A DNA stretch of 64,000 bases from Candidatus Zhuqueibacterota bacterium (GTDB taxonomy: Bacteria > Zhuqueibacterota > Zhuqueibacteria > JANLFK01 > Oleimicrobiaceae): positions 545-64,544 of the forward strand of contig JANLFK010000004.1 of the NCBI GenBank assembly GCA_024655945.1, written 5' to 3'. The translations under genes were made by a program, and so were the position numbers. Position 1 is the first letter of the stretch; each line of letters starts with the position of its first letter. The notes under the pieces were generated by a model. It was not told the DNA's origin, did no database searches, and was given only the letters and a program-made list of their open reading frames with translations. Of the stretch, positions 34,830-63,464 are shown piece by piece.

Positions 34830-34858
34830 TTGACGGGGCGAGGCGTTGTTCATATAGT
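34830..34858 (+). promoter_or_regulatory. sigma70-type promoter of the arsR operon (TTGACG-17 nt-TATAGT)
   Basis: -35 TTGACG 34830-34835, 17-nt spacer, -10 TATAGT 34853-34858, 43 nt upstream of arsR ATG. Confidence 0.55.
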
Positions 34859-34900: not shown

Positions 34901-35215
34901 ATGGAGCCAATGTACGAGATGGCAGGGCGCCTGCTCAGCTCGCTGGCACATCCGAACCGCCTGATGATACTTGACCTTCTGCGGGACGGCCCCAAATGCG
35001 TCTGCGAGCTACAGGTTGCCCTGCGGATCGAGCAGTCGAACCTCTCCCGCCATCTCAAGGTCATGGCCCAGGAGGGGCTCATTGCTCCGCAGCGCGTGGG
35101 AACGCGGTCGTACTACCGCATTGCAGAGCCGCAGGTGTGGGCCTTGCGGAACACGGCCGCCGAAATCGTCAAGAGGCGGCTGGCTCGCTTGGCCAAGATG
35201 ATTGAAGCCAAGTAG
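34901..35215 (+). CDS. arsR: ArsR/SmtB-family metalloregulatory transcription factor
   Basis: wHTH region LAHPNRLMILDLLRDGPKCVCELQVALRIEQSNLSRHLKVM with CVC metal-binding motif in helix 3. Confidence 0.8.
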   Translation: MEPMYEMAGRLLSSLAHPNRLMILDLLRDGPKCVCELQVALRIEQSNLSRHLKVMAQEGLIAPQRVGTRSYYRIAEPQVWALRNTAAEIVKRRLARLAKMIEAK

Positions 35216-35261: not shown

Positions 35262-35855
35262 ATGGAAGAGAGGAAGTCGATGGCCGGACTTCTCCCCTCG
35301 CGGCAGACGCTTGTCCAGGCGGCTCTGTTAGTCGTGCTCGCCGTCGTTGTTGGCCTGGCGTGGAATGTCCTGTGGCCAAAGGGGGTGGCGATTAGGCGCA
35401 CCCGTCCGCGGCCGCCCATTGAGACGCCTGCCCCGGAGGGCGAGACCGTCCTGTCGGACATTGCTCTCGGCGGCGGCGAGCCAGGCAGTGCCGCAGGGCC
35501 TCGGTTGTACTATGTAACGCTGAGCCAGCTGGATACGCTGCGCGCGAAACCGGGCGTGGTGTTGCTTGATGCCCGGGCTGCGGAGAGCTTCGCGAGGGCG
35601 CACATCCCCGGCGCGGTCAGCCTGCCAGCGGACGAGGTGTGGCAACACTCTGCACAGGTCGCCAAGCTCGCCCAAGCGCAGCTGGCGCTGATTTACTGCG
35701 ACGACCCCCGCTGCGACATGGCCGAACGCCTGGCAGATGAACTTCTGGCGCATGGCTTGAGAGCAATTGCCATCTATGGCGATGGCCTGCGTGGCTGGAT
35801 GGGGGCCGGGCGGCCAGTGGCCCGCGGAGACCTGGCAGAGGGAGGGCGAGAATGA
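35262..35855 (+). CDS. membrane-anchored rhodanese-domain sulfurtransferase
   Basis: N-terminal TM helix, rhodanese fold with active-site loop YCDDPRCDMAE; RBS aggag 6 nt before ATG 35262; stop overlaps next start (ATGA). Confidence 0.7.
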   Translation: MEERKSMAGLLPSRQTLVQAALLVVLAVVVGLAWNVLWPKGVAIRRTRPRPPIETPAPEGETVLSDIALGGGEPGSAAGPRLYYVTLSQLDTLRAKPGVVLLDARAAESFARAHIPGAVSLPADEVWQHSAQVAKLAQAQLALIYCDDPRCDMAERLADELLAHGLRAIAIYGDGLRGWMGAGRPVARGDLAEGGRE

Positions 35856-36289
35856 AGTGGTGGCTTCCGTATCTCGCAGTGCGCATCGTGCTGGGCATTA
35901 TCTTCGTATATGCGGCGGTGGGCAAGATTGCCGATCCTGCGGAATTCGTCCGCGACGTGGACAACTACCGCTTACTGCCCTACCTTGCCGTGGCTCTGAC
36001 TGCCGCGATTCTCCCCTGGCTGGAGCTCTTGTGTGGCATCGGCCTGATCATAGGGCGATGGACAAGGGGGAGCGCGTTCTTGGTGGCGGTGATGTTGGTG
36101 GTCTTCTTGGCCGGCCTGATTTCGGCTCTGGCGCGGGGCTTGGATATCGATTGCGGCTGCTTCAGCTTGGGGAGCGAAGCCAGCAAGGTGAGCCTGTACC
36201 GCGTCCTCGAGGACGTGCTCATGTTGGCTGCTGCTGTGTGGATCTGGCGCAGGGAGGAGAGTGCAGCTCCGGGTCGCGCGAGCGGGTAA
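35852..36289 (+). CDS. DoxX/MauE-like membrane protein
   Basis: 4 TM helices, LAVRIVLGIIFVYAAVGKIADP DoxX-like N-terminus. Confidence 0.6.
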   Translation: MKWWLPYLAVRIVLGIIFVYAAVGKIADPAEFVRDVDNYRLLPYLAVALTAAILPWLELLCGIGLIIGRWTRGSAFLVAVMLVVFLAGLISALARGLDIDCGCFSLGSEASKVSLYRVLEDVLMLAAAVWIWRREESAAPGRASG

Positions 36290-36331: not shown

Positions 36332-37632
36332 ATGGACTGGAAAAGAGAGTGGCGCACGTCGGTGCCTATTGTCGCAGGTTTCCTGGTCTGTTTTTACCTG
36401 CCTGTGGGGGCACCCCGCTTCGATAGGGCCATTAGCGAAGCGTTGCACCTGGTGAAGTGGTACGCGCGGGAACACGTCGTCCTCTGCTTGGTCCCTGCCT
36501 TCTTCATTGCCGGTGCCATCGCCGTGTTCGTGAGCAAGGAGTCGGTGATGCGTTACCTGGGGGCGCGGGCCAACAGGGTGCTGGCCTACGGTGTCGCCTC
36601 GGTGTCGGGGAGCATCCTGGCGGTGTGCTCCTGCACGGTGCTACCCTTATTTGCGGGGATCTATCGCATGGGCGCCGGTCTGGGTCCGGCAACCACTTTT
36701 CTCTACTCGGGGCCGGCCATCAACGTCCTGGCCATCGAGTTGACGGCACGCATTCTCGGCCTGCAACTGGGGATCGCCAGAGCGGTCGGCGCAGTGCTGT
36801 TCAGCATCGTCATCGGCCTGCTGATGCATCTCTTCTTCCGCAAGGAGGAGCTGGCGAAAGAAGAGGCGCAGATGCTGTTGCCAACGCCAGCAGCCAAACG
36901 CCCGCTGTGGCAAACAGCTCCCTTTTTCGCCTTGATGGTGGCGATTCTGGTGTTCGCCAACTGGGGCAAGCCGGTGCAGGCCGTTGGCTTTTGGGCGGGC
37001 ATCTACGGCGTGAAGTGGCTCTTGACCGGACTTGCTGCAGCCGCGCTGACCGTGGTGTTGGTGACGTGGTTTTACCTCAGATGGTGGAAACTGCTGTTGG
37101 TAGCTGGCGCCACGGTGGCTGCCGCCTTTTCGGCGCCGCACACGCCGACGGTTCCTTTTGGCGTCGGCGTGGTGGGGCTGTCCATCCTGACCAGCCGCGA
37201 CGATGGTGAGGCCGGCGAATGGTTCGCTTCCACGTGGGGCTATGCCAAGCAGATCCTGCCTCTCTTGTTCTTCGGGGTGCTCATTGCTGGGGGGCTGCTG
37301 GGCCGCCCTGGTCAAGAGAGGGGCTGATCCCGTCGCGATGGGTGAGCCAGCTGGTGGGCGGCAACTCCCTGGGTGCCAACTTGTTCGCCTCGGTGGTTGG
37401 AGCGTTCATGTACTTTGCCACGCTCACCGAGGTGCCCATCCTGCAGGGACTGATTGGCAACGGGATGGGCCAGGGGCCAGCATTAGCGCTGCTTCTGGCG
37501 GGGCCGGCGCTCTCGTTGCCAAGCATGCTCGTCATGCACAGCATCATGGGCACGAAGAAAACGGCGGCCTTCGTTCTCCTTGTGGTGGTCATGGCAACCA
37601 TCACGGGCATGCTGTTCGGTGCCCTGGTGTAG
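36332..37632 (+). CDS. DUF318 (YraQ/ArsP-like) permease; reading frame broken by a single indel near 37300-37312
   Basis: ORF 36332..37327 (N-half, CSC motif SILAVCSCTVLPLFAG) and ORF 37219..37632 (C-half, GQGPALALLLAGPALSLPSM) are halves of one DUF318 permease in different frames. Confidence 0.6.
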
Positions 37633-37845: not shown

Positions 37846-38202
37846 ATGAAGAAGGCGGTTTTGGTCTGTACGTGCAGCTTTGCCTGCCCGAGCATGAAGG
37901 ACATCAACTTCGGCGAGCTGAGTGAGCGTATCCGCATGGAGCTGCCTCAGGACTATCTGGTGCTCTATCCCCGCATCTGCGAGGCGAACGGCGAGAGCTT
38001 GCTTGAAGACCTCCTCAAGCCTGGGGTGAAGTACATCACCCTCGCCTGCAAGGAAGAAAAGCAGAAGAAACTCTTGCGTGACGGATTTGCGCGCGCCGGG
38101 GTGCCCATGGACGACAACTGGAAACCGATCAGCATCTCCTTTAAGACGACTGAGCAGGCGCTGACGGAGCTGGCCAAGGCATTGGAAGAGGAGGAGAAGT
38201 GA
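37846..38202 (+). CDS. hypothetical cytoplasmic Cys-containing protein (118 aa, N-terminal CxCxxxCP)
   Basis: Good RBS gaggaagacgct-ATG; motif VLVCTCSFACP; translationally coupled (GTGA overlap) to downstream ferredoxin. Confidence 0.45.
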   Translation: MKKAVLVCTCSFACPSMKDINFGELSERIRMELPQDYLVLYPRICEANGESLLEDLLKPGVKYITLACKEEKQKKLLRDGFARAGVPMDDNWKPISISFKTTEQALTELAKALEEEEK

Positions 38203-38486
38203 GCCAAACCTACATGAACATCCCGCGGCAGGAGATCCCCTGGTATCCGACGATTGACCAGGAGGCTTGTACCGCATGCGGAAACTGCGTGGACTTTTGC
38301 GCGAACGGCGTTTTTGCGCAAAAAGAGGACTGCGTGGAAGTGGTCAATCCCTACAACTGCGTGGTGGGATGCGACGCCTGTGCCAAGGACTGCCCTTCTG
38401 GGGCCCTTCATTTTCCCAGCAAGGAGGAGCTGGTGCAGAAGCTGCGTGAGCTTCGTGAGGCCTACGCCGAGAAGGCGGGACGGTAG
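38199..38486 (+). CDS. 2x[4Fe-4S] ferredoxin
   Basis: Two cluster motifs CTACGNCVDFC and CVVGCDACAKDCP. Confidence 0.8.
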   Translation: MSQTYMNIPRQEIPWYPTIDQEACTACGNCVDFCANGVFAQKEDCVEVVNPYNCVVGCDACAKDCPSGALHFPSKEELVQKLRELREAYAEKAGR

Positions 38487-38755: not shown

Positions 38756-39520
38756 ATGAAGGGAGCTCTCGGCATGGGCAACTTGCTCGAGATACGTCAG
38801 CTGAACCTGGCCTTCGACGGGCGGCCGATTTTGCGTGACTTGACCCTCGACATCAGGAGGGGAGAAGTGCACAGCATTCTCGGCATGAACGGCACGGGCA
38901 AGTCTACCTTGGCCTACGCCATCATGGGACTGAGTGGCTACCGGCCGCAGTCCGGCACGATCGTCTTCGCAGGCGAGGAGATCACCCACCTGCCGGTGGC
39001 GGAGCGTGCGAAGCGAGGCATCACCTTGGCATGGCAGGAGCCGGCCCGCTTTGAGGGCCTCAGCGTGGCGGAATACTTGCGCATCAGTGGCCGGGCCAAC
39101 AATGGCGCACTCGGCGCGGCAGAATGCGTGCGCATGGTCGGCTTGAACCCTGAGCGGTATCTGTCGCGGATGGTGGACAACACCTTGAGCGGCGGCGAGC
39201 GCAAGCGCATTGAGCTGGCCTCGGTATTGGCCATGCAGCCCAAACTGGTCATTCTGGACGAGCCCGATTCCGGCATCGACGCCCTGTCCATCGACTACAT
39301 CGTGGATGACATTCGGGCCTTTGTGCGCCACGGGGCATCGGTTTTGCTCATCACCCACCACGAGGAGGTGGCGCGCATGGCGGACAGGGCCTCGTCTCTG
39401 TGCGGAGGCACCATCCTGAAGACCGGCCTCCCGGAAGAGGTGGCACGCTTTTTCCGCAATCACTGCCGCGAGTGTCCCCACGTGAACCAGCCGGAAGAGG
39501 AGATCTACCGCAATGATTGA
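38756..39520 (+). CDS. sufC: Fe-S cluster assembly ATPase SufC
   Basis: Walker A GMNGTGKST, ABC signature LSGGERKR, Walker B VILDEPDSGID, H-loop ITHH; no TM domain, 254 aa. Confidence 0.85.
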   Translation: MKGALGMGNLLEIRQLNLAFDGRPILRDLTLDIRRGEVHSILGMNGTGKSTLAYAIMGLSGYRPQSGTIVFAGEEITHLPVAERAKRGITLAWQEPARFEGLSVAEYLRISGRANNGALGAAECVRMVGLNPERYLSRMVDNTLSGGERKRIELASVLAMQPKLVILDEPDSGIDALSIDYIVDDIRAFVRHGASVLLITHHEEVARMADRASSLCGGTILKTGLPEEVARFFRNHCRECPHVNQPEEEIYRND

Positions 39521-40463
39521 TCCCCGCCAGGAGTTTGAGCTCCTCGCTGAGGCGTACGACAAGAGCGGGGGGCAACTCGATGCCCTGAGGGATGCCCAGG
39601 TCGGCAGCCTGGTGGTCAGCCTGCACAAGATTCTTGCCAAAAATGAGATACCAGGCTTGCTCATTGAGGGCGAAGAAACCCCCACCGGCGTCCGAGCCAG
39701 GATCACGGTCAAGCAGGGCACCGTGATCGAACGTCCTGTGCACCTCTGTTTCGGGGTGCTGCCCAAAGAGGGTGTGCAGGAGATCGTGGGCGAATTCGCC
39801 ATCGAAGACCAGGCAAAGGCCACCTTCGTGGCGCACTGCTCCTTTCCGAACGCCGTAAAGGTCAGGCACCTCATGCAAGGCACCGTCCGGGTGGGCAAGG
39901 GGGCCTTGATGACCTACAACGAAACCCACTTTCACGGTGACCGGGGGGGCGTCGAGGTGCTGCCCGTGATGCGCGTCGAGGTTGCGGAGGGTGGTGAATT
40001 TCGCAGCGAGTTCAAACTCACCCAAGGGAGGGCCGGCCGGGTGGAGATCGACTATGAGGTGCGGGTTGGCACCCACGGCCTCTGTGAGCTCTATGCCAAG
40101 GTTTATGGGAAGCAGGCCGACCGCATTCGCGTGAAAGAATCGATCTATCTGGACGGGGCAGGTGCCCGCGGGCTGGCCAAGAGCCGCATCGTGGTCAGCG
40201 ATCGTGCAGAGAGCGAAGTGGTAGGCGAGATCGTGGGTAACGCACCCTTGTCGCGGGGGCACGTCGACTGCGTGGAGATCATTCAGGGCAAACAGGTGCG
40301 TGCCAGCGCCGTGCCCATGCTCCGCGTGGTCGACGAGACGGCCAAGCTGACCCACGAGGCCGCCATAGGCAGCGTGGACAAGAAGCAGGTGGAGACGCTG
40401 ATGGCACGCGGGCTGACCGAGAACGAGGCCGTAGACGTGGTCGTCCAAGGCTTGCTGCGATAG
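39513..40463 (+). CDS. sufB: SufB/SufD-family Fe-S cluster assembly scaffold (short SufBD type of minimal SufBC systems)
   Basis: 316 aa, beta-helix region with conserved FVAHCSF...HGDRGGVEV...SRGHVDCVEII motifs; start overlaps sufC end by 8 nt. Confidence 0.75.
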   Translation: MIDPRQEFELLAEAYDKSGGQLDALRDAQVGSLVVSLHKILAKNEIPGLLIEGEETPTGVRARITVKQGTVIERPVHLCFGVLPKEGVQEIVGEFAIEDQAKATFVAHCSFPNAVKVRHLMQGTVRVGKGALMTYNETHFHGDRGGVEVLPVMRVEVAEGGEFRSEFKLTQGRAGRVEIDYEVRVGTHGLCELYAKVYGKQADRIRVKESIYLDGAGARGLAKSRIVVSDRAESEVVGEIVGNAPLSRGHVDCVEIIQGKQVRASAVPMLRVVDETAKLTHEAAIGSVDKKQVETLMARGLTENEAVDVVVQGLLR

Positions 40464-40652: not shown

Positions 40653-41084
40653 ATGTCGCCAGAAGAGGTCCTGAGGACAAGAAAGGTTTATGCTCTGATG
40701 GGGGCTTCGCAGGACATTCTCAAGTATAGCTACGAGCTGTTTCACACCCTTCTCCAGGCCGGTTACAAGGTCTACCCAGTCAATCCCAGGTACCAGGCGA
40801 TTGATGGGCGACGGTGCTATGGCTCCCTGGCAGAGTTACCAGAGAAGCCAGAAGTGGTCATTGCGGCGCTGGCGCCAGCAAATACGGAAAGGGCGTTGGA
40901 GCAGGCGGTGGCTCTGGGGATAGAACTCGTGTGGATCCCCCCGGGCTCATCGTCGGATCAAGTGCTGCAAAAGGCTCGCACGCTGGGCTTGACTGTGCTT
41001 CATGGCGTGTGTCCTGTGGGTACGCTCAGACGGATGACACGCGAGGGCGGGGAGGATATTTCAGGGCCAGCTCGTCCGCAATAG
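40653..41084 (+). CDS. CoA-binding domain protein (YccU-like)
   Basis: Rossmann-like VYALMGASQD...YKVYPVNP pattern of CoA_binding_2 family. Confidence 0.6.
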   Translation: MSPEEVLRTRKVYALMGASQDILKYSYELFHTLLQAGYKVYPVNPRYQAIDGRRCYGSLAELPEKPEVVIAALAPANTERALEQAVALGIELVWIPPGSSSDQVLQKARTLGLTVLHGVCPVGTLRRMTREGGEDISGPARPQ

Positions 41085-41557: not shown

Positions 41558-41563
41558 GGCACT

Positions 41564-44258: not shown

Positions 44259-44447
44259 GTGCGAAGGCCTTTCGAGCCTCCCTTTCCCGGTGGCCATCCG
44301 ATAATGGGGTGGTGCTGCGGCCCACGAGGCTAGCATAGCCCCAGCAAAGAGGAAGAACGGGAGTGGTTAGAGTCCTACAAGGAGGAGACGGAGAGCGAGC
44401 TGTCTGAGCTCGAACCAAGAATGGCAAAGGAGGAGAGAAGAAGTTAG
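44259..44447 (+). pseudogene. degenerate paralog of the 42306 small protein, interrupted by an in-frame TAG at 44331-44333 where the intact copy has TGG (Trp)
   Basis: Nucleotide-level similarity to 42306..42497 over ~190 nt (…CATCCGATAATGGGGTGGTGCTGCGGCCCACGAGGCTAGCATAGCCCCAGCAAAGAGGAAG…); upstream 150 nt also resembles the 3-prime end of the ATPase gene, indicating a segmental duplication; no ATG at the homologous start. Confidence 0.55.
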
Positions 44448-44630: not shown

Positions 44631-45281
44631 ATGGCAAGGAAAGAAGTCTGCTGAGAACTTTCGGCCCTGTTACGGCCGAAAACCTATCCCTTTGGGGTCA
44701 AGTTTTCTGATAACACCAGTGAACGTCCTCAAGGAACCATGCGGCCGAGACATCCGATGAATACCTGCCAGATTACAGCCATTGTGCGGTACTACGCCCG
44801 ACCGATGTATTCTACGGCAGAAGATATGGCCTGCATTGTGGGTGGGGTTACTCTGGGGCTGATTCCTGAGACGGAAAACATGAAGAACGGGGAAATTGCC
44901 AAAATGCTGCATGCGGACCTGGAATCGGCGCGGGAATTCACCAGCAGAGTAGCCAAAATTCCTTACGGGAAGTTTAGGGCGGTGGCGGTGGCACCTATGT
45001 CAAAGTTGAACTTTGAACCGGATATTGTCGTCACGTATGGCAATACCGCGCAGGTGATGCGGGTCATCCAGGGCTATCTCTACAAACGTGGCGGTCGGGT
45101 TGCATTTTCCACTGGGGGGAGTGGAGCCTGTGTGCCGATAGTATCGCGCAGGCTTATGTCGATGATGATATTGCCTTGGGTCTGCCGTGTTTCGGCGACC
45201 GCAAAACCGCACTGGCCCACGAAGATGAGGTCACCGTCGCTTTCCCCTATCACTTGTACGAGGAGATACTGGACGGGATGA
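44631..45281 (+). CDS. DUF169-family protein (COG2043) with an in-frame TGA at codon 8 (44652-44654) and a frameshift near 45130-45180
   Basis: RBS ggaggtgg + ATG 44631; N-terminus M-A-R-K-E-V-C-stop-ELSALLRPKTYPFGVKF...RPRHPMNTCQ matches the DUF169 N-terminal pattern (..PVAIKF...RFCQ); C-terminal part continues in frame 2 (PYHLYEEILDGMKATAE) after a gggggg run. Confidence 0.55.
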
Positions 45282-45365
45282 AGGCCACCGCCGAGGTGGC
45301 TGCCGGTTTGCGCCAAAGAAGCCGAGAATCTAGACATTATCCTGGCCTGCGATGGGGCGGCCAGT

Positions 45366-45677
45366 GTGGGCCAGGTGGGGCACGCGGTGGCCGTTGAACT
45401 AACCAATTCCAAGGAAGCGGCTCGTATGTGCTGCATCACGGCCGTAGCCGCCGAGTCGAAGGCACACGTTGATGTCGCCAGGCGGGCCAGGAAGCTCGTC
45501 GTCATCAACGGCTGCGCCAATCGCTGTGCCAGCAAGGTGCTGGAGAGGCTGGACATCCCTTACGATTACGAGACGGTCATTGCCAAGGAGGGAGTAAGCA
45601 AGGTGCCGACCCTTGACTTCGACAAGAAGGACGTGCAACGCATTGCGGAGAAGATCGCCAAGGAGGCGCTCGGCTAA
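45366..45677 (+). CDS. DGC-domain (putative zinc-binding) protein; real N-terminus probably lies upstream near 45285-45300 (ILACDGAASVGQ) without an obvious canonical start
   Basis: VVINGCANRCASKVL and upstream ILACDGAA match the DGC-domain pattern; frame is open back to the DUF169 stop. Confidence 0.5.
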   Translation: MGQVGHAVAVELTNSKEAARMCCITAVAAESKAHVDVARRARKLVVINGCANRCASKVLERLDIPYDYETVIAKEGVSKVPTLDFDKKDVQRIAEKIAKEALG

Positions 45678-45772
45678 CGGGCTGTGGGAAAGCGGTCTTG
45701 TTCGAGGAAGCACTGGGGACACGATGTGGCTTCAAGATTCCTTATGGGAGTAAAGAGAAGGAGAAGAACAGA

Positions 45773-46177
45773 ATGAAAATCGCCGCCGTCTCTGAAGATG
45801 GCGTGACCATCAGCCAGCACTTTGGTCGGGCGCCGTTCTACGTGGTTGTTACCGTGGAGAACGGCCAGATCGTGGGCCGGGAGACACGCGACAAGATGGG
45901 TCATGCCCAATTTGCCAGAGAGCCACATACGCGAGGGGCCCATGGGAGCGACTCGCACGGCCACGGCTTTGACGCGGCCGCTCAGAGCCGTCACGCCCGC
46001 ATGGCCGCCGCCATTGCCGATTGCGACATCCTGCTGGCGCGCGGCGTGGGCGCCGGCGCCTACGAGAACATGAAGCAGGCCGGCGTTCGCCCCATTGTCA
46101 CCGACATTGCAAAAATCGAAGCGGCCGCCCTTGCCGCCCGCGGCGAGTTGATCGACCACGCAGAGCGCCTGCATTGA
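45773..46177 (+). CDS. NifX/NafY-like dinitrogenase iron-molybdenum cofactor-binding family protein
   Basis: MKIAAVSEDGVTISQHFGRAPFYVV...CDILLARGVGAGA pattern of PF02579; RBS aaggagaag. Confidence 0.7.
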   Translation: MKIAAVSEDGVTISQHFGRAPFYVVVTVENGQIVGRETRDKMGHAQFAREPHTRGAHGSDSHGHGFDAAAQSRHARMAAAIADCDILLARGVGAGAYENMKQAGVRPIVTDIAKIEAAALAARGELIDHAERLH

Positions 46178-46467
46178 GCGGCAAGCCCAGCATCAAAGTC
46201 CTCGGCGCGAACTGCGGCGCCTGCCGCGCGGTGAGCATAGGCTCGATGGTATAAACGAAACAAGATTTGTTCTTGAGGCTACCCCGGGCGGGCTGCATCC
46301 CGTGTGCATTGGCATTGCCGCTGTGAAGGCTACGGCCGGCTCCATTGTTGGCTCGAAACTAAGGGAGACGAAGCTGCCGAGCGGGCAGCTCAAGAGGGCC
46401 ATCGGCGTTTTGCGGTGGCTGATCGTCGCCAAGATGATTTTCGATTTGCTGAAACAAGAGGTGCAAA

Positions 46468-47029
46468 GTGCTCAAGGCATTGCAGAAAACCGCAAAGGTG
46501 GTCGAAGGCAACCTGGTGGTGTTCGTGTTGCTCGCCATCGTGGCAGGCGTGGCCTTCGGCTGGAAGTTCCCGGCTGCGGCCAAGGGACTCAAATCGTACA
46601 CCACGCTGACCCTCTTCATCATGCTCTACCCGATGATGATCGGCCTGCGCATCGAAGAGGTGGGCAAGGCAGTGATGAACCTGAAACTGATCAGCCTGTT
46701 CATGCTGTTGAACTTTCTTCTCGCCTCTGCTGGCGGCGGGACTGGCGTATCTGTTCCTGCATAGCCGCCCCGATTTCGCCGTCGGCCTGATCCTGACCGG
46801 CACCGTTCCCTGCGCGGACATGGTTGCCGGTTGGACGGGCTACGCCAAAGGCAACGTGGCGCTGGCGCTGGCGACCATCTTCTTCGGCCCGCTGACGGTG
46901 CTGGTGCTGGCGCTCAAGCCGGTCATCCAGATCACCTTCATGGCCACCTTCCTGCGGATTTCAGGCCGGCTGACGAAGTGGTTTGCCCCCACGCCGCAGC
47001 TGCATAAAATGGCGGTGGAAGCGAAGTAA
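46468..47029 (+). pseudogene. truncated, frameshifted membrane permease remnant (DUF318/ArsP-like or BASS-like: LTGTVPCADMVAGWTGYAKGNVALALA)
   Basis: N-part ORF 46468..46764 and C-part 46820..47029 join only via a frameshift near 46735; total ~185 aa, too short for the family. Confidence 0.4.
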
Positions 47030-47074
47030 TCCCTCGCGGTCTGGAAAAATCACAAAATTGCGAAAGGAGATGCA

Positions 47075-47422
47075 ATGAAATCTGAAACCCCAAACGAAAT
47101 CGGCGAAAGCCTGACTGCCTTTGCAGAAGAATTCGGCAAGGTGTTGGACCCGGTCGCTTTCTTGCAAGAGCGGAACCCGGCGCTGTGCGCTGCTTTCCTG
47201 CGCCTGCACGAGCTGACGCTGAACGATGGCGCGGTCTCGAAGAAACACAAGTTCCTGATCCACGCCGCGATCACTGCGGCCCAGCACGATCGTGAGGCGA
47301 CCGTCATGCATATCACCGGCGCGCAGGAGTTGCTGGAGACGGCCTTTACCATCATCCCGGTGGCCGGGATGCCGGCTTTTGCCGTTTTCCTGAGCGCCTG
47401 GAAACAGGCACGGCAAAGTTAA
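47075..47422 (+). CDS. carboxymuconolactone decarboxylase (AhpD-like) family protein
   Basis: PALCAAFLRLHELTL...KHKFLIHAAITAAQHDREATVMHI core CMD motif. Confidence 0.65.
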   Translation: MKSETPNEIGESLTAFAEEFGKVLDPVAFLQERNPALCAAFLRLHELTLNDGAVSKKHKFLIHAAITAAQHDREATVMHITGAQELLETAFTIIPVAGMPAFAVFLSAWKQARQS

Positions 47423-47435
47423 GGAGAAAACGCAG

Positions 47436-48509
47436 GTGACTACAGAAAAGCAGATCATAGAAGCATTGGCCGGGGTCCTGGACCCCGAATTGCACCGCAG
47501 CCTGGTGGAGCTGGGCATGGTGCGCGACGTACGCGTGCAGGCCGACGAGGTGTCCTTCACCCTGGCGTTGACCGTTCCCGAATGTCCGCTGAAAGACCAG
47601 ATCGTGGCCGAAGCCAGGGCGGCCGTGCTGGCCCTGGACGGCGTCCAGGAGGTGCAAATTGACCTGACCGAGATGGCCCCCGAGGAAAAGCAAACGATCG
47701 GCCTCGGAGGAGCAGGGCAGGCGGGTACGGCGGAACGGTTCAACCACATCCGGCATGTCGTGGCGGTGGTGAGCGGCAAGGGCGGCGTCGGCAAGTCGTT
47801 CGTCAGCGCGCTGCTGGCCGTGGCCCTTCGGCGAGACGGCCAGACGGTCGGCGTGCTGGACGCCGACGTCACCGGTCCCAGCATCCCCAAGATGTTCGGG
47901 CTTCACGGCGCGCCGCCGATGAGCCCCCTCGGCATCCTGCCCGCCCAGACCCAGACCGGCATCAAGGTCATGTCCATCAACCTGCTCCTGCCCAGCGAGG
48001 ACGAGGCTGTCATCTGGCGCGGACCGCTCATCAGTTCCGCCATCAAGCAGTTCTGGGGCGAGGTCGTCTGGGGCAACCTGGACTGGCTGGTGGTAGACCT
48101 GCCGCCCGGCACCTCCGACGCCGCGCTGACGGTGATGCAATCGTTGCCGCTCTCCGGGGTGTTGTTGGTCAGTTCGCCCCAGGACCTGGCCGAGATGGTG
48201 GTGCGCAAGGCGGCCCGCATGGCGCGGACGATGCAGGTTCCTCTACTGGGGTTGGTTGAGAACATGAGCTACTTCGTCTGTCCGGAGGGCGGCCGACGAT
48301 ACGAGGTCTTCGGCCCCAGCCACGGCGAGGAGATGGCCCGTCGGCTGGGAGTGCCCTTCCTGGGCCGGCTGCCCCTGGACCCGCGTATTGCCGCGTTGTG
48401 CGATGCGGGAAAGGCCGAGGAATATCCGGCAGAGGCATTTGCCCCAATCGCTCACCAGCTACAGGAGGCAGCGACTGAACCCCGCCGGTCCCCCATGCAA
48501 CCGAAGTGA
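47436..48509 (+). CDS. apbC: iron-sulfur cluster carrier protein ApbC/Mrp with N-terminal DUF59 (MIP18) domain
   Basis: Walker A SGKGGVGKSF, LDADVTGPS, Fe-S ligands ENMSYFVCPEGG, N-terminal DUF59 (ALAGVLDPEL). Confidence 0.8.
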   Translation: MTTEKQIIEALAGVLDPELHRSLVELGMVRDVRVQADEVSFTLALTVPECPLKDQIVAEARAAVLALDGVQEVQIDLTEMAPEEKQTIGLGGAGQAGTAERFNHIRHVVAVVSGKGGVGKSFVSALLAVALRRDGQTVGVLDADVTGPSIPKMFGLHGAPPMSPLGILPAQTQTGIKVMSINLLLPSEDEAVIWRGPLISSAIKQFWGEVVWGNLDWLVVDLPPGTSDAALTVMQSLPLSGVLLVSSPQDLAEMVVRKAARMARTMQVPLLGLVENMSYFVCPEGGRRYEVFGPSHGEEMARRLGVPFLGRLPLDPRIAALCDAGKAEEYPAEAFAPIAHQLQEAATEPRRSPMQPK

Positions 48510-48525
48510 TCGAGAGGTGGGCAAA

Positions 48526-48951
48526 ATGGAGCCACAGAAGGAGAAAGCACCGTTGCCCAAAGTGGGGCTCTTCGCCCGCTCCAGCGGCGGCTCCAACACT
48601 GGCTCGCTGACCGGCCTGGCGGCCCTGGAGGTGGTGCGACGCCTGGGCAGCGAGACGGTCGGCATCTGCTCATTGCCGGCGACCCAGAATGACGTGCCCC
48701 GGCAATCCGCCCTGGTGAGCAAGATCGAAAAGATCGTCGTGATAGACGGTTGCCACAACGAGTGTGTCCGTCAGTTGCTGGCCGGGGTCGGCATCCAGCC
48801 CGACGTGTACCTGAACCTGGAAACGGAGCCGAATCTGACCAAGCAAGGGCCTTTCAGCAGTCTGGCGTTCACCGATGATCCAGTGAAGCGGGTGGCCCAA
48901 AGGATCATCGGCTGTGTCCAACACGTGCTTAAGTCGGGCAATTCTTTGTGA
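48526..48951 (+). CDS. DGC-domain putative zinc-binding protein
   Basis: KIVVIDGCHNECVRQLL DGC motif, RBS gagaggtgg + ATG 48526. Confidence 0.6.
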   Translation: MEPQKEKAPLPKVGLFARSSGGSNTGSLTGLAALEVVRRLGSETVGICSLPATQNDVPRQSALVSKIEKIVVIDGCHNECVRQLLAGVGIQPDVYLNLETEPNLTKQGPFSSLAFTDDPVKRVAQRIIGCVQHVLKSGNSL

Positions 48952-48991
48952 GAAGGCAAGCAACGGGCAAAGTAGCCATGGAGGACGCGAT

Positions 48992-49195
48992 ATGCCAACC
49001 TATGAATTCAAATGTCTGGATTGTGGGCACCAGTTTGAGGTTTTTGCCCCGATCAGCCAGAAGGAAAGGGGCCTGGAACTACACTGCCCCAAATGCGGTA
49101 GCGAAAAGATGGGCGAGATCTTCGGTAGCCTTATCTTTGTGCACAAGACCGGCGACGTCGTGCCATCCGGCGGCAGCTGCTGCTCACGGCGATGA
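48992..49195 (+). CDS. FmdB-family zinc-ribbon protein
   Basis: MPTYEFKCLDCGHQFEV...LHCPKCGS CxxC...CxxC; RBS ggagga. Confidence 0.7.
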   Translation: MPTYEFKCLDCGHQFEVFAPISQKERGLELHCPKCGSEKMGEIFGSLIFVHKTGDVVPSGGSCCSRR

Positions 49196-49346
49196 GATGA
49201 CGCCAAGCTGGCCAGTTTGCTGAGGGTGTCCTGGCACAGCGAAAAGCGATGGCCTGGTGGAGGTACCAGGGAGTGGACACGTGCACTGAGCCGAGGAGGT
49301 ATCGAAGGGAGCGGAAAAAACTCTTGGCTTCATCGGTGGCGGACGG

Positions 49347-50098
49347 GTGACCCGGCTAGTGCTGGAGGGTCTGTGCCGGGCCGAGGGCCTGCCAAAACAA
49401 CTCCTGGTCTACGACCCGGAAGCGAACAATCTCGAAAGACTATCGACCATCGTAGGCGACCGCCCGACCGAAGCGGACTTGCATCGGGCCGTCGCCGAGG
49501 TGGCCGATCTGATGTTTCTGGCCGTGCACCCACCGGTGGCGGTTGAGGTGTGCGAGCAGATCAAACCCGCGTTGAAAAGAGACGCGACCATCATCTCGTT
49601 GATCCCCACCATCACGCTCCGCCGCCTATCCGAGATGCTCAACGGCTTCAATCGCATCGTGCGCATGACCCCAACGCGCCGTCGGTGACCGGCAGGGGTT
49701 ACAATCCGGTTGTCTATTCGGATTCTCTCACGGCGGCTGACCGCTCATCGCTCGTGAGCCTGTGCCGGTGCTGGGGCCAATCGCCTGAAGTGCGCGAGGA
49801 GCACCTGGAGGCCTACGCTATCCTCACCGGCATGGGGCCCACCTACTTCTGGTTCCAGTGGCCGGAGCTGGAGCGATTAGGGAGGGAGTTCGGTTTGAGG
49901 CAGTCCGAAGCTCTGCAGGCAGTGGCGGCCATGCTGCATGGCGCGCTGGATGCGCTGTTTCACTCCGGACTGCCGGCCGAACAAGTGCTGGATTTGATTC
50001 CCGTTTACCCGTTGAAAAACGATGAAGAAGCCATCCGGCATATCTTCCGAGATCGGTTAGTCGCTCTGTACCAGAAGCTGAAGGCAGCGACTCGGTGA
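49347..50098 (+). CDS. proC: pyrroline-5-carboxylate reductase; frameshift near 49660; GxGxxG motif (LGFIGGGR) encoded upstream of the only in-frame start (frame open from 49293, no canonical start there)
   Basis: ORFs 49347..49688 and 49550..50098 are the two halves of ProC (RIVRM[M]PNAPSVTGRGYNPVVY); one nt missing at ATGACCCCAACG. Confidence 0.55.
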
Positions 50099-50251
50099 CA
50101 TCCTTTGCGAAAAGAGGGGTCCACAGGAGAGGAGGAAATTGGACAAGGCGACTGGGTTCGGTGTGCACCAGGGTGCAGTTGGCCCCTGTTGACTGCAAGA
50201 CAGTAATGGTTCCTCTTGCGAATCGATTCTCCAATTACCGAGGAGGCCATA

Positions 50252-51168
50252 ATGAGACTTGCGCAAACGTCTTTCTGGAGGAATTATCTTCCCACCATCG
50301 TCTTGCTGTTTGTTCTCCTGGCCTTGTTCATTGGGCTCTTGCCCAGCGACAAGCTGCGCAGTGAGAACTTGCCAACGCTGAATGTTGGTCATGGCAGCTT
50401 CTTGGTCGTCATTGGCCTGTTGGCTGGTTTGCTTGGCGGTTTGATTGGTACCGGCGGCTGCAGCGTGATGTTTTGCCAGCCATTCATTTCTGGTTGGGTT
50501 ATCTAGCCACCACTGCAGTTGGCACCACGCTCTTTGCCGTGGTTCTTACCGCCATCTCTGGCGGCTACGGCCATCTCATCCGCAAGAACCTGGATGTGCG
50601 AGCCACGCTGTGGGTTGGCATTTCCGGTATCGTCGGTGTCATCATTGGTTCCTACCTCTTCAAACTGCTCACGGCACGCACGGCGCTGCTGGGATTGATC
50701 TTGGGATTGGCGTTTCTTTGGCCTGCCATCCGCATGATCTGGGAAGGGCTGTTGCAGACCAAGAAGCCTCAGGCCATGGGTGAGTCGATTCCTGGGCCCA
50801 CATGGGGTTGGGTGATCATGGGACTGCTCATTGGCATCTTGACGGGCGTGGTCGGCTTGGGCGGAGGTTATGCGTTGGTGCCTGGTTTCATCTACTTGTT
50901 TGGTGCGCCGGTCTACGTCACCATGGGCACGTCGCTGGCAACCATGATCCCGCTTGCTGTGGTGGGTGGCGGAATCAAACTGCTACAGGGATTCGTGGCG
51001 CTGGGGGCGGGTTTGCTCTTGGCTATTGGGACCGTCATCGGCGCCCAAATAGGTGCTGCCATCATCAAGAAATTCAAGCCGACCAGATTGAAATTCATCT
51101 TCGGCCTGTATTTCCTCTATGTATCCGTGAAATTTGTCACGGCGTTTTTGGGGGTAACAATCTGGTAG
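50252..51168 (+). CDS. TauE/SafE-family anion (sulfite) exporter; frameshift at a TTTT run near 50470
   Basis: ORFs 50216..50506 and 50473..51168 join as ...LIGTGGCSVM / LPAIHFWLGY...; two TauE-type repeats with GxGGG motifs (VVGLGGGYALVP); RBS gaggagg + ATG 50252. Confidence 0.6.
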
Positions 51169-60013: not shown

Positions 60014-60147
60014 GCGGGGCAGGGCTGATTCAGCAGGGGCAATGCGGCAGTGGCCCGCCGGGCACAGCCCCTGCGTGTTGCCTGGTGCGCATCAACTTGC
60101 GGGTGTAATGCCCGTGAAAGGTGGAAAGATGAACCGTACGGCAAGAA

Positions 60148-61127
60148 TAGCAGTCGTCGTTGTGTTGCTGGTGGCAGTTGGTGTGGTGCTGGTGCTGCGC
60201 GGCAGGGTGGACAAGGGGCCGCGTCAAGAGGCAACTGTGGCGGAACTGACGGCCGGAGGGAAGGAGGATCTGGGGAGTGCAGCCGAGGCGAAAGAGGCGT
60301 CACCCGGTCAAGCGTCTGCTGAGCCTGTGGCAGTGGCGCCACCTGCGGCTCTTCCCAAGGGCACTGTCGCCCTGGTGGATGGCCGGCCCATTACCGAGGA
60401 GTACCTGCGCACCACCTTCGAAAGCCTGCCGCCTCAGTACAAGCAGGAGTTTCAAGGTGACATGGAGACCTTCTTGGACCAGCTCATTGTGCGCGATCTG
60501 CTCCTCAACGAGGCCAGGCGCCGCGGGCTGACGGCAGCGGACTCCTCCGGGGGCGAGAGCCAGGACGGCACCATCCAGGCGCTGGTGAACGCCTTGGGGA
60601 GCGCCGTACAAGTGTCGGATGCCGAGGCCAGGCGCTTCTACGCCGAACACGCCGAGGAGGTGCAGGGCGCAACCTTTGAGCAGGTGGAGAGCAGTATTCG
60701 CGACTACTTGGGCCAGCAAAAGTTCGTCGCCTCTATCTCTTCACTCATTGATAGCCTTCGCTCAGCAGCGAAGATTGTCAAGAACGAGGAATGGCTGGCG
60801 GCACAGCGAGCGGCCCAGCCCCCAGACCCGCTGGAGCCTGCGCTGCGCAGTGACAAGCCGACGGTGCTTGACCTTGGCTCGGACAGCTGCGTGCCGTGCA
60901 AGATGATGAAGCCCATCTTCGCCGAGCTGGAGAAGGAGTACAAGGGGAAGGCGAACATCCTGCTCTTGGATGTGTATGAGCACCGGCGGTTAGCCCGCCA
61001 GTATCAGGTGCGAGTCATCCCCACGCAGGTGTTCTTTGACCACCAGGGGAGAGTCTTCTGGCGCCACGAAGGATTCATGTCCAAAGAGGAAATCGTCAGC
61101 AAACTGCGCGAGTTAGGAGTGGAGTAG
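60148..61127 (+). CDS. membrane-anchored thioredoxin-fold protein with SurA-N-like chaperone domain (periplasmic thiol-disulfide oxidoreductase)
   Basis: N-terminal TM anchor, SurA-N-like region (IVRDLLLNEARRRGL), C-terminal thioredoxin domain with CVPC active site (DLGSDSCVPCKMMKPIF). Confidence 0.65.
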
Positions 61128-61828
61128 ATGCGGGCGGTTCTTGAGTGGCTTTCCTTAGCCATGGGTGGCTCGCCCGCCCTGGCTCTCGTTGGGGCTTTGC
61201 TGTGGGGTCTTTTGAGCATCTTGGTGAGTCCTTGCCACTTGGCAAGCATCCCGCTGGTGGTTGGCTTGATCGACGGCCTGGGGCAGATCTCCACCAGGCG
61301 CGCCTTTGTCCTTGCCCTCATTTTCGCCACCGGGATACTGCTGACCATCGCTATGGTCGGCGTGCTGACCAGCTTGACGGGCCGCATGCTTGGCGACCTG
61401 GGTGCAGTGGGCAACTATGTCGTGGCGGTCATCTTCTTTGCCATCGGACTCTATCTCTTGGGGGTGATTGACGTGCCGTGGCTTGGGGAGGGGCGCATCC
61501 CAGGCTGCACAGAGGGGGTGTGCTGGCTGCCCTAGTCATCGGCTTGCTCTTTGGACTTGCCCTGGGGCCGTGTACTTTTGCCTTCATGGCGCCCATGCTT
61601 GGGGTGGTCTTTAAGGTGGCGGCGTCGAACATCCCCTATGCAATCTCGCTGGTGCTGGCTTATGCTGTAGGGCACTGTTTTCTCATTGTGGTGGCGGGCA
61701 CCTTCACTGGCGCCGTGCAAAACTACCTGCAGTGGAACGAGCGCTCGCGGACGACGGTTATCGTGCGACGCATCTGCGGCGTGTTGGTGATTGCGGGCGG
61801 GCTTTATCTTCTGTGGACTGCGGCTTGA
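61128..61828 (+). CDS. ccdA: CcdA/DsbD-family thiol-disulfide transporter; frameshift near 61490-61535
   Basis: ORFs 61128..61535 and 61478..61828 are the halves of a 6-TM CcdA-like protein with the two conserved Cys (SPCHLASIP and GPCTFAF). Confidence 0.6.
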
Positions 61829-61841
61829 GAGGGGAGCGCTC

Positions 61842-62318
61842 ATGGGCAGAAAGCTGAAAGTGCTTTTCCTATGCACCGGCAATTCCTGCCGCAGCCAGAT
61901 GGCCGAGGGCTGGACACGCCGTTTGAAAGGCGACGCCATCGAGGTGTGGTCGGCCGGCATTGAACCGAAGGAGGTAGACCCGCGCGCGGTGGCCGTAATG
62001 GCTGAAGCAGGGGTGGACATCTCGGGCCAGCGTTCCAAGCACGTGCGCGAGGTGATGGACATTCCCTTCGACTATGTGGTCACCGTGTGCGATCACGCGC
62101 GGGAAACGTGTCCATTGTTTCCGGGTGCCGCAAAACGGGTGCACATGGGTTTCAGGGATCCTCCGGAACTGGCACGCCGGGCGCGCACCGAGGAGGAAGC
62201 CATGCAGATCTACCGACGCGTGCGCGACGAAATTAGGGCGTTCGTGGAGGAGATGCCAGGGATCTTGGAGACCGTCTCTTCCGCAGAGCGCCACACCGCT
62301 GAGAGGAAGGGCCGGTGA
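61842..62318 (+). CDS. arsC: arsenate reductase ArsC (low-molecular-weight phosphatase family, thioredoxin-coupled)
   Basis: P-loop VLFLCTGNSCRSQMAEGW, downstream Cys pair region, 158 aa. Confidence 0.8.
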   Translation: MGRKLKVLFLCTGNSCRSQMAEGWTRRLKGDAIEVWSAGIEPKEVDPRAVAVMAEAGVDISGQRSKHVREVMDIPFDYVVTVCDHARETCPLFPGAAKRVHMGFRDPPELARRARTEEEAMQIYRRVRDEIRAFVEEMPGILETVSSAERHTAERKGR

Positions 62319-62350
62319 CGGAACGAGAACAGTGGGAAAAGGGAGGCGTC

Positions 62351-63418
62351 ATGAGTGGGCAGACCGGAAAGCAATTGTCGGTGTAGGACAGGTTTTTGAC
62401 CTTGTGGATTTTCTTGGCAATGGCAGCGGGCGTGGGTTTGGGTTACCTTGTGCCTGGGGTCACGCGCCTTATTGCCAGTCTGCACGTGGGGGCGACCTCT
62501 TTGCCCATAGCCGCGGGACTCATCCTCATGATGTACCTGCCGTTGGCAAAGGTCAAGTATGAAGAGATGGTGCGGGTGTTCCAGAACAAGCGCCTTCTGG
62601 TGTTGTCCCTCCTGCAGAATTGGGTCGTGGGGCCCATCGTCATGTTCCTGCTGGCGATACTGCTTCTGCGTGACCATCCGGACTATATGATGGGTGTCAT
62701 TCTCGTCGGATTGGCGCGCTGCATCGCCATGGTCATTGTCTGGAATTCGTTGGCCGAGGGGGATCGGGAGCTGGCCGTAGGTCTGGTCGCCTTCAACGCC
62801 GTGTTCCAGGTGCTCTTCTATGCTGTCTACATCTACCTGTTCATCACTCTTGCCTTGAATTGGCTGGGAGTGGCAAGAGGGGTGGATGTGCACATCTCCA
62901 GTTTGGAGGCGGCCAAGACGGTGTTCATCTATCTTGGCATCTCCTTCCTTGCCGGCCTGATCACCCGCACGACCTTGCTCCGCCGCAAAGGGCGCGAGTG
63001 GTAGGAGAAGGTGTTCACTCCAAAGATCAGTCCCATCACCCTGGTGGCGCTCCTTTTCACCATCGTGGTGATGTTCTCCCTGAAGGGTGAGTATATCATC
63101 AAGCTGCCGCTGGACGTGCTGCGCGTGGCTGTGCCGTTGACCCTGTATTTCTTCCTGATGTGGTTTGTGACGTTCTTCCTTGCCCGCCGACTGGGGGCGA
63201 ACTATGCGCAGGTGACCGCGGTCTCCTTCACGGCCGCCAGCAATGACTTTGAGTTGGCCATTGCCGTGGCAGTGGCAATCTTTGGCATCCAGTCAAACCA
63301 GGCCTTTGCCACGGTAATCGGTCCGCTACTGGAAGTGCCCATCCTGGTCAGCTTGGTCAATGTCGCGCTGCGGCTCAGGCGGCGGTTCACCCCAGTCGAG
63401 GCGAACGAGATGGCATAA
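62351..63418 (+). pseudogene. acr3: ACR3-family arsenite efflux transporter interrupted by two in-frame TAG codons (62384-62386 and 63002-63004)
   Basis: ATG 62351; N-terminus MSGQTGKQLSV[23 protein letters not shown] matches the conserved ACR3 start (..LSFFDRYLTLWI..); ORFs 62396..63004 and 63011..63418 are in the same frame separated only by TAG; otherwise the 10-TM protein is intact. Confidence 0.65.
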
Positions 63419-63464
63419 CGCGAGTGACCCACGTGGTAGAACTTTCGACGAGCAGGAGAGGAGA

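Follow-up and report, generated by a model that had tools for sequence, protein, structure and literature searches.

A DUF169-DGC Gene Module in the Middle of an ars-Type Island of Candidatus Zhuqueibacterota

Introduction

The stretch of DNA considered here, 64,000 nucleotides from Candidatus Zhuqueibacterota bacterium (the whole of which we call the window), holds at positions 44631 to 49195 a run of genes that make odd company: DUF169, two proteins of the DGC family, a NifX-like protein, an ATPase of the Mrp/ApbC kind, and an FmdB-type zinc ribbon. The original prediction, made from the letters alone, took them for part of a dedicated but still undefined pathway for assembling or delivering a cofactor. 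We find that the flagged 4.6 kb is the middle of an ars-type island of about 29 kb with an ArsR/SmtB regulator at its head, and that what is new here (ars islands themselves being already known) is an undescribed accessory module within such an island. What does such a module do, and for whom? Our preferred answer, to which we give an even chance, is that it helps its hosts to handle metalloid or thiol stress.

The Genes of the Flagged Segment

The genes and gene remnants of the segment are as follows.

44631..45305, plus strand: DUF169 (PF02596) remnant with three lesions, from a profile match and alignment to intact homologs
45291..45677, plus strand: DGC paralog 1 (DGC1), with MCC and DGC..C motifs, 5'-truncated, from a profile match
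45770..46177, plus strand: NifX-like protein, PF02579 (Nitro_FeMo-Co), intact
46504..46909, plus strand: ACR3/SBF-family transporter remnant, spread over two frames and matching no more than residues 11-164 of a homolog of 351 residues
47075..47422, plus strand: CMD/AhpD-like protein, intact, 66-81% identical to island homologs
47436..48509, plus strand: Mrp/NBP35-type P-loop ATPase with an N-terminal DUF59 (FeS_assembly_P)
48526..48951, plus strand: DGC paralog 2 (DGC2), from a profile match, with the first of four conserved Cys changed to Arg
48992..49195, plus strand: FmdB-family zinc ribbon, CC pair at its C terminus; the order DGC2-FmdB-ProC is also found in another locus, L152

Pfam and NCBIfam profiles confirm every family call that had been made for this segment (DUF169, two DGC, NifX-like, Mrp/ApbC, and FmdB), and its two ends, the ATG at 44631 with GGAGG ahead of it and the FmdB stop at 49195, had been placed correctly. 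What did not stand was the assumption that the genes are intact, for DUF169, DGC1, and DGC2 all carry lesions; the ACR3-like remnant and the CMD-like gene had been missed altogether. The G+C content of the whole window, about 0.60, makes raw lists of open reading frames (ORFs) noisy.

With its frames repaired, the DUF169 sequence matches the family profile at 163 bits against a gathering score of 27 and is 80-87% identical to intact proteins of 255-265 aa from many metagenomes, being equally close to proteins of metagenome-assembled genomes (MAGs) named Saccharicenans (Acidobacteriota), Atribacterota, and Hydromicrobium (Actinomycetota). As it stands in the DNA, the gene is broken in three places. 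A TGA at 44652-54 sits at the second Cys of the invariant N-terminal VCCEL, where 35/35 close homologs have CC; one nucleotide is missing from the G-run at 45113-18, which has G6 where G7 is needed; and the C-terminal ~35 residues are gone, including 12 invariant columns from Y230 through T247 (YP..D..FPQMP.YTLT), the truncated end abutting DGC1 directly. The window has no DUF169 ORF that runs to full length without interruption and keeps every residue invariant in its subfamily.

One might imagine that the TGA encodes selenocysteine. An 8-bp hairpin (UUUCGGCC/GGCCGAAA, with the loop CUGUUAC) follows it, within window positions 44652-44690, and is the most stable of 32 homologous sequences (31 Cys-encoding homologs being compared; z-score -1.7). 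We nevertheless think selenocysteine unlikely: the loop lies 12 nt from the UGA, which is short for a bacterial selenocysteine insertion sequence, 0/35 homologs use TGA, and the invariant C terminus is gone.

Both DGC proteins match PF08859 (82.3 bits for DGC1 and 51.4 bits for DGC2 against a gathering score of 27). Proteins of the DGC2 type have four conserved Cys (C17, C47, C75, and C79 in P0057 numbering), putatively metal-chelating, and an MCC pair and an N-terminal LPLC are further features of DGC1; neither copy in the window offers all four Cys within a translatable ORF. DGC1 keeps its Cys residues and is missing about 12 N-terminal codons, with no ATG, GTG, or TTG before the first conserved Cys, a loss that we ascribe to the same deletion that removed the C terminus of DUF169. 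DGC2 is a complete ORF, identical to the NCBI records MCR4438715.1 and MDH7560950.1 (annotated as “bacterium” and “candidate division KSB1 bacterium”), and has Arg at the first conserved position, C17, which is Cys in 29/29 aligned DGC2-type homologs.

Of these two families, DUF169 and DGC, the literature that we searched describes no function and no solved structure, in keeping with their having been called uncharacterised, and sequence profiles of the two found no relative in the PDB. An AlphaFold model of DUF169 (pLDDT 80, pTM 0.78) has no convincing counterpart among PDB folds by Foldseek (best E 0.63), and a model of a DGC2-type protein (pLDDT 80, pTM 0.77) gives only generic flavodoxin-like matches (cutinase at E 4e-3 and TM 0.36; LMW-PTP at TM 0.46-0.48). 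As to carriage on plasmids, PLSDB returned only distant DUF169 matches, of 25-34% identity.

The NifX-like protein scores 52.8 bits with PF02579 (gathering score 26.3) and fails the equivalog cut-offs by a wide margin (24.3 bits against 112 for NifX; 24.4 bits against 343.7 for NifB); it bears a His-rich insertion specific to its subfamily, with seven conserved His and one conserved Cys. The CMD-like protein has no CxxC, one conserved Cys, and five conserved His. In the FmdB protein (Zn_ribbon_8/TIGR02605, 53.3 bits against a cut-off of 31.3), the ribbon residues C8, C11, C32, and C35 are conserved.

The Mrp protein (ParA/NUBPL PF10609, 306 bits; FeS_assembly_P PF01883, 77 bits) has the deviant Walker A motif GKGGVGKS, which fits the pattern GKGGhGK[ST]. 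Where some 70 other homologs have CPxCG, it has ENMSYFVCPEGG (CPEGG), and the canonical CXXC is absent. Its orthologs of the island type (L001, L002, L018, L090, L130, and L149) have CPDSG, CPDTG, or CPDNG at this place, and the Mrp proteins of L126 and L134 have no Cys there at all. Two equivalog models come near and fall below their cut-offs: ApbC (NF008669, 219.5 against 348 bits) and MrpORP (NF041136, 321.9 against 450 bits), the latter being the best NCBIfam match, complete but for the C-terminal PF02579 domain. The missing domain is supplied by the adjacent NifX-like gene, which stands immediately upstream of Mrp in L002, L090, and L149. In MrpORP itself the CXXC has been shown to bind an Fe-S cluster, and the Mrp and PF02579 domains both bind Fe-S (PMC6345978). 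Because the CXXC pair is an Fe-S ligand in MrpORP and its relatives, the island Mrp, with its CP[DE]xG, is on its sequence a family-level variant that cannot be classed, as it had been, with standard Fe-S carriers, and members of this CXXC-less Mrp/NBP35 subfamily should not be annotated as ordinary Fe-S carriers. Exact database look-ups of the window ApbC and of the protein at 60042-61127 found no record.

A Set of Genes That Travels Together

Where else do these genes keep company? The answer depends on which of them one follows. When ApbC was the anchor, in one genome per GTDB species (80 loci, the nearest from Anaerolineae at no more than 66% identity), the NifX-ApbC pair was kept only in L002, and neither DGC nor DUF169 was present in any of the 80. 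When DUF169 was the anchor, the same partners recurred in 65 metagenome loci and in three MAG loci. It is DUF169 and DGC that the gene set accompanies, and not ApbC; its conservation is that of a mobile set, not that of taxonomic relatives.

For a test of enrichment, we set 26 de-replicated DUF169 loci of at least 8 kb against 67 ApbC-anchored control loci (1.2 Mb). DGC occurs in 19 of the 26 and in none of the controls, ArsR in 17 (one control), and a ferredoxin in 14 (one control). A NifX-like protein is found in 12 loci, as is at least one of ACR3, ArsC, and ArsP, each with a single control to set beside it; CMD and the CoA-binding protein are in 11 loci each and Thioredoxin_3 is in 10, all three without any occurrence in the controls, and SufBD is in 11 (two controls). 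Mrp is present in 10 DUF169 loci (the controls, being anchored on ApbC, give an uninformative count), and an rSAM (radical SAM) gene is present in 6. The Fisher p values for these enrichments run from 1e-6 to 1e-14, figures that overstate the independence of loci related by horizontal transfer. The expectation that poorly characterised families recur together across distant taxa is in this way upheld, with DUF169 as the anchor and enrichment over the controls as the measure, and a second, independent anchor, DGC2, leads to the same result. So is the suggested link with a minimal SufBC system, on the strength of SufBD in 11/26 loci and of an SmsC-type Cys triad in the SufC of the window.

Individual loci show how the set holds together as its order changes. 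The fullest, L090, reads ArsR-ArsP-CoA_binding-p118-Fdx-DGC1-NifX-Mrp-DGC2-CMD-DUF169-SufC-SufBD...ProC, an order unlike that of the window (Fdx is ferredoxin, and p118 is described below); its core (DGC1, NifX, Mrp, DGC2, CMD, and DUF169) is 70-85% identical to that of the window, SufC and SufBD are about 50% identical, and the outer genes are lower. In an Aminicenantales MAG (L153), we find ArsR...DGC-Mrp-DGC-CMD-DUF169-SufC-SufBD-ArsP-Trx-CcdA-ProC-ACR3 (Trx being thioredoxin), with a transposase gene on either side, and in Saccharicenans (L082-84), DGC-DGC-CMD-DUF169-ArsR. L152, reached like L153 with DGC2 as the anchor, gives ArsR-ArsP-ArsC-Trx3-Trx-CcdA-ACR3-ArsR-p119-Fdx-Trx3-SufC-SufBD-DGC-DUF1805-DGC-FmdB-ProC. 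Other recurrent neighbours, verified with Pfam, are FmdE, OsmC, B12-rSAM, YlbF, and CcdA. We consider it very probable that the set is a conserved, mobile island of ArsR type, shared with shuffled gene order among anaerobic sediment bacteria of several phyla.

Two further observations belong to these loci. DUF1805 lies between two DGC genes in both L151 and L152, and the DGC pair of L151 keeps company with TauE, DUF6951, and Crp and PadR regulators; because that pair has no ars or Suf genes beside it, DGC also occurs in a second kind of context. In several intact islands, DUF169 is followed by a protein of about 116 aa with a vicinal-Cys motif, SSCCSS, that matches no Pfam family and is absent from the window:

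L095, 5895-6245: SSCCSS protein
L153, 11771-12121: SSCCSS protein

The State of the Window Copy

The island of the window bears at least six frameshifts, three nonsense codons (at 44331, 44652, and 63002), and two internal deletions. The damaged genes are DUF169, DGC1, DGC2, ProC, and nearly all of the transporters of the island (ArsP, both ACR3 genes, TauE, CcdA, and the RND pump). The genes for the NifX-like and CMD-like proteins, Mrp, FmdB, SufC, SufBD, the ferredoxin, p118, and rSAM keep all of the residues that are conserved in homologs. Judged by how much of their domains they cover, some 20 genes at 1-34 kb have their full length, the lesions being concentrated in the island.

Are the lesions real? 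In each of the three frameshifts resolved to the base (DUF169, ProC, and TauE), a homopolymer has lost one nucleotide, and the stretch in which the ArsP frame shifts holds a G6 run, a pattern like that of long-read error. That all of the frameshifts are sequencing artefacts seems to us the less likely view, with about 20 genes of the first 34 kb at full length, and error alone is further argued against because homopolymer errors would explain neither the nonsense codons nor the two deletions nor the change of Cys to Arg. A contig of the Joint Genome Institute (JGI), Ga0417229_000096, differs from the window at 2 bases in 20.5 kb and has the same lesions. Reassignment of a stop codon we reject: TGA, TAG, and TAA end 23, 11, and 5, respectively, of 39 confident genes. 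More probable than a general artefact is genuine decay, or else a consensus built on low coverage in the island alone, and we conclude that the island copy of the window is, as far as its reading frames indicate, at least partly pseudogenised. It would be a poor template for experiments; the intact islands are those of the L090 and L153 type.

The Rest of the Island

From 34.9 to 63.7 kb, every gene lies on the plus strand; the unrelated housekeeping genes of about 19-34 kb lie on the minus strand. The island opens with a promoter-like site and the ArsR/SmtB gene, goes on through rhodanese, MauE, and ArsP genes to p118, a ferredoxin, and SufCB, and then through a CoA-binding protein, HypA and its ATPase, a peptide, and rSAM to the flagged module; beyond it come ProC-like and TauE genes, an OEP-MFP-RND pump and MgtE, and finally Trx-CcdA-ArsC(LMWP)-ACR3-Trx3. 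The neighbours that had been named upstream of the module (SufC/SufBD, ferredoxin, HypA, ATPase, peptide, and rSAM) were all recovered by profiles.

34830..34858, plus strand: promoter-like site TTGACG-17-TATAGT ahead of the ArsR gene, a consensus match only, such sites being no more numerous than in shuffles
34910..35215, plus strand: ArsR/SmtB-family regulator (NF033788, HTH_5/HTH_20), first gene of the co-directional island
35262..36289, plus strand: rhodanese-domain protein and MauE/DoxX membrane protein, from profile matches
36332..37632, plus strand: ArsP_1 (PF03773) permease with a VCSCT motif, frameshifted between 37291 and 37324 in a stretch with a G6 run
37846..38486, plus strand: p118 followed by a 2x[4Fe-4S]-type ferredoxin, a conserved gene pair
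38756..40463, plus strand: SufC/SmsC and SufBD-core/SmsB-like genes, a minimal SUF (SMS-type) pair; C-terminal Cys triad C216, C237, C240 in SufC
40653..41084, plus strand: CoA_binding_2 protein, from a profile match
49317..50098, plus strand: P5CR/ProC-like reductase, island-linked, frameshifted at about 49670 (C4 where C5 is expected)
50216..51168, plus strand: TauE/SafE-family permease, frameshifted at about 50470 (T4 where T5 is expected)
60042..63737, plus strand: ars-type block of thioredoxin, CcdA (split), LMWP-type ArsC (CTGNSCRS), ACR3, and Thioredoxin_3

The regulator scores 85.6 bits with NF033788, for which the cut-off is 55, and has a CVC pair (KCVCE) in its alpha3 region that is kept in 83-89% of 18 island-linked ArsR homologs. 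A thiolate-site ArsR, As(III) efflux proteins, and an arsenate reductase, which together define an ars island, are all found here, the transporters being disrupted in the window copy; the second ACR3 gene (62396-63418), for one, is interrupted by a TAG in frame at 63002-04. ArsR, ArsP, MauE, p118, DGC1, DUF169, FmdB, and the peptide all contain vicinal Cys pairs (CC or CxC). Motifs of HgcAB, ArsD, and MerA were not found in the loci searched, and an ArsA-type Walker A motif was found in one locus (L134) only.

The protein that we call p118 has about 120 aa, is rich in Cys (C8, C10, C14, C45, and C68 are conserved), and matches no Pfam or NCBIfam family. A two-cluster ferredoxin of about 95 aa regularly follows it (in the window and in L088, L090, L099, L101, L126, L134, L152, and L153); of the NCBIfam models, HgcB fits that ferredoxin best (39 bits, where 99 are required). 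The SufBD-core protein, at 316 aa a short one, scores 65.5 bits with PF01458 and 74.4 bits with the SmsB model NF052511, well under the cut-off of 650. The pair does fit the description of an SMS system, which is a SufC-like ATPase with C-terminal Cys ligands and a SufB-like partner without a desulfurase, and no cysteine desulfurase is among the gene calls of 34.8-64 kb. Homologs of the CoA_binding_2 protein in other islands have four conserved Cys, at two of which the window copy has Ala (A85 and A108).

At 41144-42313 lie HypA (NF003008, 178 bits where 125 are required) and, after a gap of 7 nt, a 249-aa ATPase of the Mrp/MinD type without CXXC, a pairing that resembles HypA and its ATPase-type HypB partner in Thermococcales. 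This pair stands outside the conserved island set, for neither gene turned up in the other loci. The rSAM/SPASM gene is flanked by two genes for a Cys-rich peptide, at 42306-42497 and 44259-44447; the peptide has GGHPMMGCCCGPWGW... ahead of a coiled-coil tail and matches DUF5320 weakly (19 bits), and a Trp codon of the first copy is TAG in the second. In some 150 loci, including those with rSAM homologs (6/26 island loci), no similar peptide was found. The rSAM protein is of the SPASM type, its best models being those of NirJ and AhbD (NirJ2, AhbD), the mycofactocin maturase, and peptide maturases.

The G+C content is 0.55-0.56 over 50000-58000 (TauE, two small ORFs, and OEP-MFP-RND) against 0.60-0.64 elsewhere, which suggests a mosaic origin within the island. 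Outside the island, ARAGORN and Rfam agree on tRNA-His and tRNA-Glu at 10723-10937. ARAGORN alone also calls a 92-nt tRNA-Pro at 32552-32643 (minus strand), inside a GHMP-kinase ORF (31413-32828), which Rfam does not confirm and which is probably a false positive.

What the Module Might Do

We propose that the flagged genes are the core of a mobile accessory module in an ArsR-headed, ars-type island that deals with metalloid or thiol stress, a reading that we think has as good a chance of being right as of being wrong. It is the setting that recommends it, because the set sits among genes for ArsR, ArsP, ACR3, ArsC, thioredoxin, and CcdA. The recurrent accessory set consists of DUF169 with its CC pair, at least two four-Cys DGC paralogs, the CMD-like protein, the His-rich NifX-like protein, the CXXC-less Mrp, the p118-ferredoxin pair, the Cys-bearing CoA-binding protein, and an SMS-type SufC/SufB scaffold.

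How could such a set work? Vicinal thiols are targets of As(III), for which ArsD acts as a Cys-based chaperone (PMC6205960). A thiophilic metalloid such as As(III) might bind the CVC site of ArsR and so de-repress the island (the gene context is what hints at such induction), whereupon the pumps and ArsC would remove the metalloid. DGC, DUF169, the CC-bearing FmdB, and p118 might bind or hand over metalloid, or shield thiols, in the manner of ArsD; and SmsCB, the Mrp variant, the NifX-like protein, and the ferredoxin might rebuild or deliver Fe-S clusters that the metalloid has damaged. These roles of individual proteins are held somewhat more loosely than the reading as a whole and are a little more likely to be wrong than right.

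One can go further and imagine DUF169-CC, DGC1, DGC2, the CMD-like and NifX-like proteins, the single-Cys Mrp, and SmsCB as an undescribed, mobile pathway of anaerobes in which a relay of Cys/His carriers passes along a thiophilic metalloid (arsenic or a relative), coupled to re-synthesis of Fe-S clusters. This is a speculation that we would more readily see fail than hold. If true, it would be the first functional assignment for DUF169 and DGC.

Several things weigh against a metalloid as the object of the island. ArsR/SmtB proteins have other ligands (other metals, persulfide, and sulfite), the second-best NCBIfam model of the window ArsR is BigR (44 bits; cut-off 155), and its nearest PDB relatives include SqrR and BigR. 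Rhodanese, TauE, MauE, OsmC, and CMD would fit a sulfur or oxidant theme equally well. The ars genes are present in just 12/26 loci within the sequence available, and these loci, as we have said, are not independent of one another. Vicinal Cys are only modestly enriched in the window (7 in 3473 aa vs 3 in 4421 aa), and the four-Cys DGC and Cys-rich DUF169 could be plain Fe-S or Zn proteins.

The first alternative is the one from which this study set out, a dedicated pathway for an Fe-S or other metallocluster, in which SMS would build, Mrp and the NifX-like protein would carry, rSAM and ferredoxin would supply chemistry and electrons, DGC and DUF169 would serve as scaffolds or clients, and the ars genes would be incidental. 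Much in the locus invites this thought: SufC/SufBD with the Cys triad of SmsC, the pairing of Mrp with PF02579 as in MrpORP (both domains of which bind Fe-S), a ferredoxin, rSAM or B12-rSAM in some loci, and a wealth of conserved Cys ligands. Against it, no client enzyme is conserved in the 26 loci, rSAM accompanies just 6 of them and is not NifB-like, and the island Mrp lacks the CXXC ligand pair. The recurrent context is that of a horizontally spread, ArsR-headed, ars-type island (ArsR in 17/26 loci, ars genes in 12/26), and the identity of 80-87% across phyla together with transposase flanks resembles an accessory resistance island; in the window genome, moreover, the module has decayed and SufCB has been kept. 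We regard the cofactor pathway as unlikely. With it goes the more particular suggestion that the NifX-like protein and the rSAM enzyme form a split NifB, which we reject in view of the models that the rSAM protein matches (NifB is not among the 25 best shown of 56 matched), of the presence of rSAM in just 6/26 loci, and of the 24.3 bits, where 112 are needed, of the NifX-like protein.

Of similarly low probability is a second alternative, that the island serves against stress, either from reactive sulfur (persulfide, sulfite, or polysulfide) or of a general thiol and oxidant kind. ArsR would then be a thiol switch like BigR or SqrR; sulfur species would be the business of rhodanese, TauE, MauE/DoxX, the CoA-binding protein, CMD, OsmC, Trx, and CcdA, with DGC and DUF169 as carriers of persulfides. 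The weak similarity to BigR and the place of SqrR and BigR among the closest solved proteins of the ArsR family count in its favour, as do rhodanese, MauE, and TauE in the window, OsmC, CMD, and VKOR-Trx in the census of neighbours, and L151, in which DGC-DUF1805-TauE-DGC occurs without ars genes. In Desulfovibrio alaskensis G20, the DUF169 gene Dde_0597 adjoins a TauE-like gene, and both have fitness effects under nitrate stress (PMC4001038). But the BigR score is far under its 155-bit cut-off, the CVC pair of ArsR is typical of sites for thiophilic metals and absent from the aligned SqrR and Rv0081 sequences, and arsenic-specific ACR3 and LMWP-type ArsC recur in the island.

Finally, that unrelated genes are merely juxtaposed in the window genome might be suggested by the varying gene order and by the Anaerolineae ApbC orthologs in GTDB that lack the set, but it is contradicted by the presence of the same set in dozens of contigs from several phyla and its absence from the controls, and we give it almost no credence.

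Comparison with Known Systems

With NifB, NifX, and NafY, the island shares the PF02579 domain. It differs from them in its sub-cut-off NifX and NifB scores, in the His-rich insertion, and in having an rSAM protein of the SPASM type, and no nitrogenase genes were found in the window.

The Desulfovibrio ORP complex, with MrpORP (NF041136), offers a closer parallel, that of an Mrp/NBP35 ATPase combined with a PF02579 “Di-Nase” module. In the island, unlike MrpORP, the two modules are separate genes (in the window they are 1.26 kb apart, with the ACR3 remnant and CMD between them), and the window Mrp is below the 450-bit cut-off, has CPEGG for CXXC, and bears an N-terminal DUF59. Nor does the island have the sigma-54/OrpR regulator or partners of the Orp3/Orp4 type.

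The SMS system (SmsCB; PMC12192291 and PMC12442378) is likewise a two-gene pair of SufC and a SufB-like protein, with no desulfurase nearby. In M. jannaschii SmsC, the triad C218/C239/C242 binds a [4Fe-4S] cluster (PMC12192291), and the Cys...CxxC triad of the window SufC (C216, C237, and C240) matches it. The points of difference are a short SmsB-like protein far below the cut-off of its model and a pair that lies inside an ArsR-headed island, not in a stand-alone housekeeping operon.

With the ORP complex and SMS, ars operons and islands make up the nearest known systems; the island shares components with all three and adds about ten conserved genes found in none of them. Unlike other ars systems, this one shows no ArsD motif and has an ArsA-type Walker A in L134 alone, and in the window its ArsP gene and its two ACR3 genes are broken. 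Like them, it places an ArsR/SmtB regulator with a CVC pair first; it includes ArsP_1, ACR3/SBF, an LMWP-type ArsC (CTGNSCRS), Trx, Thioredoxin_3, and CcdA in the window and related loci; and it is distributed, as mobile elements are, across phyla. What sets it apart are some ten extra conserved genes (DUF169, DGC, CMD-like, NifX-like, the Mrp variant, p118, Fdx, CoA-binding, SufCB, and ProC-like) that belong to no ars system in the literature searched, where we also met no description of the set itself. Both DUF169 and DGC occur widely among anaerobes and archaea, and their close link, across phyla, to ArsR/ars genes and a minimal Fe-S system yields a hypothesis that can be tested, one that would add to what is known of ars islands in anoxic sediments, a setting in which the mobilisation of arsenic matters.

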